This document shows, one piece after another, positions 30,332 to 41,809 of a stretch of DNA of 64,000 bases. Origin of the DNA: an uncultured Pseudomonadota bacterium. GTDB taxonomy: Bacteria > Pseudomonadota > Alphaproteobacteria > RF32 > CAG-239. Both the position numbers and the translations under genes were made by a program. Numbering within the stretch: position 1 is the first letter of the stretch; each line of letters begins with the position of its first letter. Below the pieces are notes generated by a model that saw only the letters and a program-made list of their open reading frames with translations, searched no databases and was not told where the DNA came from. The stretch spans positions 12,468-76,467 of the forward strand of contig CASGEB010000001.1 of NCBI GenBank assembly GCA_949300375.1, read 5' to 3'.

Positions 30332-30356
30332 AAAAAAGGGCTGTCGCGGCAGCCCC
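30332..30356 (-). terminator. Rho-independent terminator after the csoR-like gene
   Basis: On the minus strand the stem is ggggctgc/gcagccc, followed by ttttttatt. Confidence 0.8.
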
Positions 30357-30360
30357 GTAA

Positions 30361-30651
30361 TTATTCTTCAAAACGGTCAAAAAGCATTTTCAGTTCCGCA
30401 ATTTTTTCGGCCTTGTCCTCCTCACTGTCAAAAGACTGGGCAACACAAGACTGCAGATGACGGTTCAGAATATTCCCTTCCACAGCCCTGATTGCAGAAC
30501 GAACGGCCTTCAGCTGAATCAAAATTTCAGGACAATACCGGTTTTCGGCAATCATCTTTTTCACACCTTCCAACTGGCCGAGAATCCGGTTCAGCCTCGG
30601 CAATTCTGCTTCATGGTTCGGATGCTTTGAAAAATTTTGACCTCCTGTCAT
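30361..30651 (-). CDS. csoR: CsoR-family metal-sensing transcriptional repressor (Cu(I)-type C-H-C ligand set)
   Basis: 96 aa from MTGGQN, with LNRILGQLEGVKKMI..RYCPEILIQLKAVRSAI..NRHLQSC. By my count the ligands are Cys40, His65 and Cys69, the same 25/4 spacing as canonical CsoR. Confidence 0.8.
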   Translation of the reverse strand: MTGGQNFSKHPNHEAELPRLNRILGQLEGVKKMIAENRYCPEILIQLKAVRSAIRAVEGNILNRHLQSCVAQSFDSEEDKAEKIAELKMLFDRFEE

Positions 30652-30655
30652 CTTT

Positions 30656-30841
30656 TTAACCCTTATGGCAAGAACATTTATCACTGCATTTATGCTCTTC
30701 ATTGCAATGGCAGTCATCGCCGCAGGTACAATGCTCGTTGCATCCGCAGCCTTCTCCGCATTGATGCGTTTCATCGCAAGTGCAGTTATCGCCGCAGGTA
30801 CAGTTCGGATTTTTACATTTCGGATTGTTGCAATTTCTCAT
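30656..30841 (-). CDS. Cys/His-rich metallothionein-like small protein (61 aa, 16 Cys, 5 His)
   Basis: MRNCNNPKCKNPNCTCGDNCTCDETHQCGEGCGCNEHCTCGDDCHCNEEHKCSDKCSCHKG. A strong SD aaggag lies 6-7 nt upstream of the ATG at 30841. The stop is 4 nt before the csoR start. Confidence 0.65.
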   Translation of the reverse strand: MRNCNNPKCKNPNCTCGDNCTCDETHQCGEGCGCNEHCTCGDDCHCNEEHKCSDKCSCHKG

Positions 30842-30864
30842 TTTTTTCTCCTTCTTTGACAATA

Positions 30865-30915
30865 TACCCCCACAGGGTACAATTGAAATATACCCCGACG
30901 CGGTATAAAAGTCAA
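30865..30915 (-). promoter_or_regulatory. Sigma70-like promoter with two CsoR-type palindromic operators
   Basis: On the minus strand: -35 ttgact (30915-30910), a 17-nt spacer and -10 tatatt (30892-30887). Palindrome ATACC-n7-GGTAT (30890-30906) spans the spacer and the -10. Palindrome TACCC-n5-GGGTA (30865-30879) lies just downstream. Confidence 0.55.
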
Positions 30916-30992
30916 TAAATTTTTCGTCCCCCGTTGAAGATAATAAAATCAATCTTATATACCAAACATCACATTAACAATAGAGGAAAAAC

Positions 30993-31253
30993 ATGTACAC
31001 GCCCAAACAAGGAGATAAAGTGGAAATCAAAGATTTTTCCAACCGCCCGTTTCAGGAAGACGACGAAAAAAACTTTTTTGTAAAAACCATTGCCGAAGAA
31101 AAACTGATTGATACGGCCGCCGGCCTGGACGATGAAGAAGAGTTTGAAAAAGATATGCTCAATTACGGCGACTTTGAAGACCTGCCCGACAGCGACCGCG
31201 AAACCATCTGCCGCAGCAAAGGCATAAACATAAACAATTGTCTGAAATTATAA
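30993..31253 (+). CDS. Hypothetical small acidic protein
   Basis: 86 aa with an SD agagga upstream and many D/E residues. It is divergent from the metallothionein-like operon. Confidence 0.4.
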   Translation: MYTPKQGDKVEIKDFSNRPFQEDDEKNFFVKTIAEEKLIDTAAGLDDEEEFEKDMLNYGDFEDLPDSDRETICRSKGININNCLKL

Positions 31254-41425: not shown

Positions 41426-41809
41426 TCAATGCTTTCCGCACTTGCAGCCGGTATGTTTTTTGCCGGTTTTCTTACAGCAGTCATCGCCGCGTCCGCAACG
41501 GCAGACATCGTCGTTGCCGCAATCTCCGCCGCAGGAACATCCGTCTCCGCCGCCGCAATGGCAGGAATTTTCAGCCTGAATTTTGGCGTAATATTCAAAC
41601 TCGCCGCTGCCGTCCGAATTAAAATGCGCCGAAAAACTGCCGGAACTAAAACTCAATTTTTCCGATTCGGTAACAGGTTCATCTAAAATCCGCCCTTCCG
41701 CTATCGCCTCCTGCATTTTTTCGAGTCTTTTCTTTTTTCCTTCGCAACAGGCGCATCCCGAGCCTTGTATCGGGGTAGAGATTAACATTTTTGCCAACCA
41801 TCCGAACAT
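41426..41809 (-). CDS. Cys-rich protein with a metallothionein-like C-terminal tail
   Basis: 127 aa with an SD aaggaga 7 nt upstream. The N-terminal motif is GCACCEG. The C-terminus is SCHCGGGDGCSCGGDCGNDDVCRCGRGDDCCKKTGKKHTGCKCGKH, with 11 Cys in 46 aa. Confidence 0.55.
   Translation of the reverse strand: MFGWLAKMLISTPIQGSGCACCEGKKKRLEKMQEAIAEGRILDEPVTESEKLSFSSGSFSAHFNSDGSGEFEYYAKIQAENSCHCGGGDGCSCGGDCGNDDVCRCGRGDDCCKKTGKKHTGCKCGKH

Follow-up and report, generated by a model that had tools for sequence, protein, structure and literature searches.

A metallothionein-like peptide gene paired with a probable copper-sensing CsoR-family repressor in uncultured gut bacteria

Here, we analyzed a two-gene operon on the minus strand of a 64-kb stretch of DNA from an uncultured alphaproteobacterium (hereafter, the window), with all parts of the operon read straight from the sequence. 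The first gene (positions 30656–30841, stop codon included) encodes a cysteine-rich, metallothionein-like peptide of 61 amino acids (aa), and the second, csoR (30361–30651), which starts 4 nucleotides (nt) past the stop codon of the first, encodes a 96-aa repressor of the CsoR family. Comparison with related genomes indicates that this is a real and well-conserved operon, in which a family of metallothionein-like peptides would be controlled by a CsoR-type and, most likely, copper-sensing repressor.

Transcription would start from a predicted sigma-70-type promoter, with a -35 hexamer TTGACT (30910–30915, minus strand) and a -10 hexamer TATATT (30887–30892, minus strand), which were recognized both by reading the sequence and in a promoter scan (score 10/12, 17-nt spacer). 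Two palindromes, to which no strand is assigned, are embedded in this region. Operator 1, ATACC-N7-GGTAT (30890–30906), which includes a TAC-N9-GTA dyad, occupies the spacer between the two hexamers and overlaps the -10 element, and operator 2, TACCC-N5-GGGTA (30865–30879), covers approximately positions +1 to +15 of the operon transcript, over the likely transcription start. A Shine-Dalgarno sequence, AAGGAG (30848–30853, minus strand), lies 6 nt 5′ of the start codon of the small gene (ATG at 30841), and past csoR, a terminator scan detected an intrinsic terminator with a 7-bp GC-rich stem, a 6-nt loop, and a T-run (30332–30356, minus strand). The 4-nt spacing suggests that the two genes are co-transcribed and, perhaps, also translationally coupled. 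All these elements, that is, the promoter, the strong Shine-Dalgarno sequence, the small open reading frame (ORF), csoR 4 nt further on, the terminator, and the two palindromes, had been proposed in an earlier reading of this DNA (the original prediction) and were borne out by our inspection and scans. The motif TACC-N7-GGTA occurs twice in the window, both times at the operon promoter, against 0.15 occurrences expected from shuffled sequences, and 9 times across the 1.64-Mb genome.

The peptide contains 16 cysteines (26%), 5 histidines, and six C-x-C motifs, and aromatic and aliphatic residues are absent after Met1, with Phe, Tyr, and Trp all missing. It displays the features by which metallothioneins are operationally recognized, namely, small size, a cysteine content above ~15–30%, C-x-C or C-x-x-C motifs, and lack of aromatic residues, and no signal peptide or hydrophobic segment was found in it. 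The AlphaFold2 model, which is of low confidence (mean predicted local distance difference test score 58), has zero secondary structure, a result that fits a disordered apo form. The original prediction had placed the peptide outside the known families, and comparison with Pfam, including its metallothionein profiles, upheld this assessment: the peptide has no match at E ≤ 1 in Pfam or NCBIfam, and 30 family members scanned at E ≤ 10 yielded sub-threshold matches only, none of them passing the threshold for PF02069 (SmtA/BmtA), PF00131, PF02067, PF05522, PF01439, or the NCBIfam models. Thus, homology to the described metallothioneins is not detected by these models. Of the 30 members, 10 matched PF02067 weakly (best E = 0.003), weak matches to PF05522 were seen in 5, and a protein-language-model search likewise returned metallothionein clusters. 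Eukaryotic copper/zinc metallothioneins (Pfam families 5 and 6, of insects and nematodes) resemble the peptide in size, composition, and C-x-C-G-D-x-C-x-C style motifs, but the scores fall well short of the curated cut-offs (for the 61-aa peptide, 8.5 bits against 25), so that membership in the eukaryotic families is not supported, and the likeness to the insect and nematode proteins would be most simply explained by compositional convergence. A literature search, by exact motif and by topic, found no description of this peptide family.

The peptide gene carries an internal 50-nt direct repeat, the two copies of which (30753–30802 and 30681–30730) are 82% identical; because they are offset by 72 nt, that is, 24 codons, the repeat represents an in-frame duplication of a C-x-C-G-D-x-C-x-C-x-E-x-H-x-C module. 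The second C-x-C-G-D-x-C module is lacking in the shorter (36–42 aa) homologs of the Gastranaerophilales type. The ORFs extracted from 80 related loci include 71 stand-alone peptides of 36–66 residues with 10–19 cysteines, which share the N-terminal signature C-x-N-P-x-C-x-x-x-N-C-x-C-G-D/E-N-C-x-C. Within a 19-codon core, synonymous sites are near saturation and amino acid changes are rare, with a mean pN/pS of ~0.2; across this core, the peptide gene of the window differs from that of locus L019 by 10 synonymous and 0 non-synonymous changes, and from that of L029 by 8 and 1, respectively. The non-cysteine residues (Asn, Pro, Lys, Gly, and Asp) are conserved as strongly as the cysteines, and the histidines, too, are conserved within the family. 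We take the small ORF to be a real gene under purifying selection, and its product to represent a family of bacterial metallothionein-like peptides that is new at the sequence level.

Similar cysteine-rich modules were observed in other protein contexts. In the window itself, a 127-aa protein (41426–41809, minus strand) has a cysteine-rich tail, C-x-C-G-G-x-D-x-C ... C-K-C-G-K-H, reminiscent of the 61-aa peptide, with no TACC-N7-GGTA box nearby. In metagenome-assembled genomes of Clostridia and Bacilli (L055, L056, L058, L059, L060, and L071), the C-x-C-G-D-x-C repeat forms an N-terminal extension of GrpE-like proteins of ~207–241 aa, and among L061 and L063, the same repeat forms the tail of a ferredoxin-like protein in one case and lies at the head of a membrane protein in the other. 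The top profile matches, P0009 (645 aa) and P0010 (232 aa), carry 3–11 tandem N-P-x-C-x-C-P-x-C-x-C-G-x-G-C-x-C-G modules joined to a ThiF/E1-like domain.

When one genome per species was scanned at the DNA level, relatives of the peptide were identified in 87 species genomes. The carriers are mainly uncultured gut Alphaproteobacteria, including ‘Proteobacteria bacterium CAG:495’, along with Candidatus Gastranaerophilales, some of them recorded as Brachyspira sp. CAG:484; two Fimbriimonadaceae and one actinobacterium are also named in the records. In a sample of 151 genomes of the same order, the peptide is encoded in 81 and a PF02583 (CsoR-family) gene in 88, with both present in 65, the peptide only in 16, CsoR only in 23, and neither in 47. 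The family is far less visible at the protein level: when 5.8 billion predicted proteins were searched with a word index, only six related clusters were retrieved, and only 32 representatives were found among 1.84 billion proteins, compared to the 87 genomic loci. The csoR frame remains open upstream through the peptide gene, and the resulting 137-aa ORF (30361–30774, minus strand) begins with an ATG at 30774; gene finders therefore could predict an over-long CsoR and miss the peptide. The rarity of the family in protein databases relative to genomic loci amounts to an annotation blind spot.

The association of the peptide with csoR is widespread, and so is the operator. In 51 of the 80 peptide loci, from both Alphaproteobacteria and Gastranaerophilales, the peptide gene is followed immediately by a csoR-family ORF in the same orientation. 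An exact TACC-N7-GGTA box was found within 110 nt of the start codon in 43 of the 49 CsoR-linked loci with enough upstream sequence, versus 2 of the 20 loci without a downstream CsoR. The box typically occupies the spacer between the -35 and -10 elements (TTGACA-N-ATACCC-N5-GGGTATAAT), a TTGAC-type hexamer is found at the -35 place ahead of most operator-bearing promoters, and in 25 of the operator-bearing CsoR-linked loci, a second box follows 26–34 bp past the first. A GGAG-type motif comparable to the Shine-Dalgarno sequence precedes the small ORF in most related loci. The same design recurs in the L007 contig, from an unrelated assembly, in which the DNA sequence is different throughout. 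The CsoR operators are TAC-X9-GTA dyads around G-tracts, and in the case of the Streptomyces lividans CsoR, two tetramers bind per operator (PMC3902906); both boxes in the window match TAC-N9-GTA exactly. This phylogenetic footprint, linking operator and CsoR, provides the strongest argument that the repressor acts at the operator sites. The autorepression layout that had originally been proposed for this operon is likewise reinforced, with operator, promoter, and gene order kept across two phyla, and the cassette can be traced, at the sequence level, in dozens of uncultured gut bacteria that span at least two phyla. Prediction of a complex between the CsoR tetramer and a 29-bp operator 2 duplex gave a score of 0.00, equal to that of the shuffled-DNA controls. 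In the Gastranaerophilales loci (L062–L089), a TGnTATAAT extended -10 box precedes the csoR start codon (ATG) by ~6 nt, suggesting that, in these bacteria, csoR is expressed from a separate leaderless or near-leaderless mRNA, apart from the operator-controlled peptide promoter.

Beyond the promoter pair, the genome contains 7 exact matches to TACC-N7-GGTA. Of these, two were inspected in a search for operators in front of transport genes; one lies in a tRNA gene and the other in a G9 tract of a glycosyltransferase ORF, and the peptide is the only target that can be assigned to the repressor in this genome. The G9 tract (G000:C5:25140, outside the window) reads ATACC-G9-TAT, which fits TAC-N9-GTA, and lies just before TATATAAT; the run resembles a slipped-strand phase-variation tract.

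The identity of the sensor is clear at the family level. The 96-aa protein matches PF02583 with 88.4 bits (cut-off 22.8; E = 4e-25), is the product of the only PF02583 gene in the genome, and has RicR as its best NCBIfam model, at 63.8 bits, far below the cut-off. In 24 aligned sensors of the clade, Pro11, His13, Arg19, Asn21, Arg22, Tyr39, Cys40, Gln46, His65, Cys69, and Glu86 are invariant. Among these residues, Cys40, His65, and Cys69, with the 25/4 spacing, align to the ligand positions in the structures of the Geobacillus and Mycobacterium tuberculosis CsoR, that is, to the x-C-H-C set that forms the Cu(I) site of CsoR (PMC11672702). Arg19-Leu-Asn-Arg22 and Gln46 correspond, respectively, to the RLxR motif and to the Gln on which operator binding by S. 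lividans CsoR depends (PMC3902906). Tyr39, positioned before the first ligand Cys, and Glu86, in helix 3, together form the second-shell (‘A-B’) fingerprint of Cu(I)-sensing CsoR, a pair that has been tied to Cu(I) selectivity (PMC11672702). According to Foster et al., the complete Tyr-Glu pair is missing from nickel sensors, whether known or deduced, and the Tyr “appears to accurately predict Cu(I) selectivity” (PMC4235346).

The genomic context of related sensors points in the same direction. In a class-wide search, the closest relatives outside the peptide-linked clade come from two other alphaproteobacterial families (55–57% identity), possess the same N-terminal H-P-S-H motif, and are each encoded by the first gene of a csoR-copA operon behind a promoter with a TAC-N9-GTA operator, in one of the two cases with the dual-operator layout. 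The ATPases of these operons (741 aa) reach 601–603 bits with TIGR01511 (cut-off 397) and contain the CPC, YN, and MxxSS motifs. In the genome analyzed here, no gene for CopA (a P1B-1 ATPase) or CopZ adjoins the sensor gene or could be assigned to its control, whereas in the closest outside relatives such a linkage is observed. The original prediction assigned the repressor to the copper type from the 25/4 spacing of Cys40, His65, and Cys69, and this assignment is supported by the ligand set combined with the Tyr/Glu shell and the CopA-linked relatives; by itself, the C/H/C set with this spacing does not exclude the nickel sensor InrS, in which both are the same. The ligand description given there also overlooked the invariant Pro11-x-His13 motif, located ahead of helix 1, which in many sensors of the clade takes the form H-P-C-H and may provide a fourth ligand or a metal-transfer site. 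Given the architecture of the operon, the Tyr39/Glu86 second shell and the csoR-copA context of the outside relatives make Cu(I) a quite likely inducer.

The assembly, estimated to be 98.9% complete, encodes one CsoR-family protein, one HMA domain, and one P-type ATPase, with no Cu-type ATPase detected. The sole ATPase exceeds the threshold of the cadmium-type model (518 bits, cut-off 313.5) but stays below that of the copper model (373 bits, cut-off 397), displays CPC, a transmembrane Lys, and Ala-Asp-x-Gly motifs, and adjoins an ArsR/SmtB regulator. At this locus (G000:C27:7300–9836, outside the window), the ArsR/SmtB regulator is accompanied by a separate HMA-domain ORF and the 617-aa Zn/Cd-type P1B ATPase, the metal-binding domain being split from the pump by a TAA codon. 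Because the genome lacks a CopA-type pump, its response to copper under CsoR control appears to consist in buffering instead of export. More broadly, a clear CopA (>500 bits, with HMA, CPC, YN, and MxxSS) is present in only 3 of the 151 genomes of the order. In about a dozen of these genomes, a different ATPase adjoins a different CsoR paralog; in L095–L097, from genus g5 of the order, this second paralog (Cys4 ... Cys34-His59-Cys62-Cys63) shares an operon with an HMA-less ATPase containing CPC and H-N-x-G-S. We did not count these ATPases as copper systems, and rejected those of genus g5 as evidence for copper, given that the regulators belong to the other paralog and the pumps lack YN and MxxSS.

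We propose, with a probability of about 70%, that this is an autoregulated operon derepressed by Cu(I), the metallothionein-like product of which protects the cytoplasm by sequestration. The scheme that we infer, including the inducer, metal binding by the peptide, its stoichiometry, and the feedback loop, would operate as follows. When copper is scarce, CsoR tetramers would sit on both TAC-N9-GTA operators and block RNA polymerase. Binding of Cu(I) at Cys40′-His65-Cys69 would be relayed through a His65-Tyr39′-Glu86 hydrogen-bond network, lowering the affinity for DNA, so that CsoR would be released and a bicistronic mRNA produced. From the first cistron, with its strong ribosome-binding site, the disordered 61-residue peptide would be made in large amounts, and its 16 cysteines, perhaps together with the 5 histidines, would wrap Cu(I) in thiolate clusters, whereas the second cistron, 4 nt on, would yield some sensor and replenish the pool. 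As the peptide lowers the available Cu(I), apo-CsoR would rebind and switch the operon off.

Several observations weigh against this scheme. Of the 81 peptide-bearing genomes of the order, 16 encode no CsoR-family protein at all, and therefore the peptide also works outside this circuit. In a relative, G075, that encodes both the cassette and a true CopZ-CopA system, inspection of 290 nt upstream of copA, a stretch that comprises copZ and ~90 nt 5′ of it, revealed no operator; hence, the regulon need not be a general copper regulon. Metallothioneins rich in C-x-C motifs take up Zn and Cd just as readily as they do Cu. The sequencing runs in which DNA of the window occurs are DNA runs only, with no RNA run listed. 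Finally, two features of the sensor itself count on the same side: invariant His13, as a possible fourth ligand, would favor a four-coordinate metal, and InrS, with ligands identical to those of CsoR, scores nearly as well as CsoR in structure searches. In a single-sequence search of the PDB, InrS (5fmn) is the best match, with 59 bits versus 57 for the Geobacillus CsoR, whereas in a search with the clade profile, the Cu(I)-bound Geobacillus CsoR (4m1p) leads, with 78 bits versus 72 for InrS.

These last points bring up the principal alternative, under which the same architecture would respond to another signal: the sensor would be an InrS-like, four-coordinate protein (His13-Cys40-His65-Cys69) detecting Ni(II)/Co(II) or Zn(II), and the peptide would buffer Zn or Cd. 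Apart from the high rank of InrS, the invariance of Pro11 and His13 in 24 of 24 aligned sensors, with H-P-C-H in many, would suit a fourth ligand, and the histidines of the peptide are conserved, as in zinc metallothioneins such as SmtA. InrS also binds Cu and Zn tightly in vitro (PMC4235346), so that ligand sets alone do not fix specificity. Nevertheless, Tyr39 is invariant in the clade, whereas this Tyr is missing from the known or deduced nickel sensors, and the alignment places Pro at this position in InrS; no nickel transporter gene is linked to the operon; and His13 aligns five residues off InrS His21. Furthermore, the H-P-S-H sensors of the two other alphaproteobacterial families share operons with Cu-type P1B-1 ATPases, and the genome already pairs its Zn/Cd ATPase with a dedicated ArsR/SmtB regulator. 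On this evidence, we consider a nickel, cobalt, or zinc sensor improbable.

Another signal to be considered is reactive sulfur or thiol oxidation, detected by a CstR-type sensor via Cys40 and Cys69, with the peptide serving as a thiol or persulfide buffer in the sulfide-rich gut. The CstR family is characterized by a C-x-C motif without the Tyr-Glu pair. The habitat, the animal gut, would be appropriate for such a sensor, the CstR structure 7mq1 is among the PDB matches, and sensors of reactive sulfur species are the largest group of the CsoR superfamily (PMC11672702). Yet the clade keeps His65, Tyr39, and Glu86 without exception, whereas in the aligned CstR structures the sensing Cys is preceded by Asp and the position of His65 is not occupied by His, the nearest relatives control CopA pumps, and no sulfurtransferase or persulfide dioxygenase genes were found nearby, all of which makes a sulfur sensor very improbable. 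Finally, the notion that the small ORF is a Cys-codon-rich leader tuning csoR, or a precursor from which a modified or secreted cysteine-rich peptide is made (a ribosomally synthesized and post-translationally modified peptide), rather than a cytosolic metal binder, can draw on the position of the ORF immediately 5′ of csoR and on the few cysteine-rich radical-SAM target families returned, with low scores, by the protein-language-model search, but we rejected both versions as scarcely credible, given that the non-cysteine residues are as conserved as the cysteines and the entire core is under selection, the gene has no csoR after it in 20 loci, no signal peptide or hydrophobic segment is present, no maturase or exporter is a conserved neighbor, the non-CsoR neighbors differing by lineage, and the -10 box preceding csoR in Gastranaerophilales suggests a separate promoter.

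The proposed Cu(I)-responsive operon could be extended into a broader reading for small-genome gut Alphaproteobacteria and some Gastranaerophilales, under which these bacteria would rely on a sequestration-only copper defense without CopA, mediated by a modular, unnamed metallothionein family that gene callers largely miss, and under a distinct CsoR subclade in which the invariant N-terminal Pro-x-His, often as His-Pro-Cys-His, would add a fourth ligand or a metal-transfer handle to the Cys-His-Cys site. We regard this extension as tentative and, taken as a whole, rather doubtful.

How does the proposed system compare to those already characterized? In M. tuberculosis, mymT is a separate member of its regulon. 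The closest functional parallel appears to be the RicR-MymT link in this bacterium, where a CsoR paralog represses a copper metallothionein (PMC11672702), and the regulatory half of the operon described here is a normal CsoR system. The two would have in common a CsoR-family Cu(I) sensor, palindromic promoter operators, and a small, cysteine-rich cytosolic copper binder as the target, so that the defense, in both cases, would be sequestration. The differences are considerable, however: the peptide described here belongs to no NCBIfam or Pfam family and shares one operon with its sensor, the genome encodes no copper pumps whereas M. tuberculosis has them in addition, and the hosts are Gram-negative gut anaerobes and Gastranaerophilales rather than actinomycetes. 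With the CsoR-copZA systems of Bacillus subtilis, S. lividans, and Geobacillus, the operon shares the x-C-H-C ligands, the Tyr/Glu shell, RLxR and Gln, TAC-X9-GTA operators with G-tracts, and autoregulation. By contrast, the target here is neither a P1B-1 ATPase nor CopZ but a metallothionein-like peptide, the effector gene comes first and the sensor gene second, and the sensor has the extra invariant Pro-x-His before helix 1.

The SmtB-SmtA pair of Synechococcus (BmtA family, PF02069) offers another precedent for a bacterial metallothionein that is derepressed by metal acting on a dedicated repressor. SmtB, however, is a member of the ArsR family and senses Zn, and SmtA adopts a zinc-finger-like fold with aromatic residues, whereas the peptide does not match PF02069 even at E = 10. 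Csp3 is described as a cytosolic, cysteine-rich Cu(I) store in bacteria (PMC5171941; PMC11672702), comparable in this respect to the proposed role of the peptide, but it is a folded four-helix-bundle tetramer of ~130-residue subunits, in contrast to 61 residues with no predicted secondary structure.

The SmtA/BmtA proteins constitute one family of bacterial metallothioneins. Few others are named in the reviews consulted, among them MymT (PMC11672702) and Pseudomonas PmtA. The peptides described here would add a sequence-distinct family, encoded in at least 87 species genomes, mostly of uncultured gut Alphaproteobacteria and Gastranaerophilales, and the linked CsoR turns copper buffering into a direct, testable hypothesis for the function of the peptide. 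The case also bears on cytosolic copper handling in bacteria that lack the CopA pump. The habitats may be relevant in this respect, given that DNA of the window is present in metagenome runs from chicken gut, other birds, and further sources. Chickens and other birds of such habitats are often fed a copper-supplemented diet.

The promoter region of the operon might also serve the opposite strand. A promoter-like site, TTGACA-16-TACAAT (11/12; 30856–30883, plus strand), faces away from the operon, with operator 2 located inside its spacer. In sister species (L010–L014 and L017), a pirin-family gene is divergent from the promoter region (L010:2148–2918). The present genome lacks pirin, with 68 nt (30918–30985) replacing 865 nt, and the opposite-strand site now points at an 86-aa acidic ORF (30993–31253) and a DUF805 gene, so that a divergent transcript may be under the control of the same CsoR repressor.

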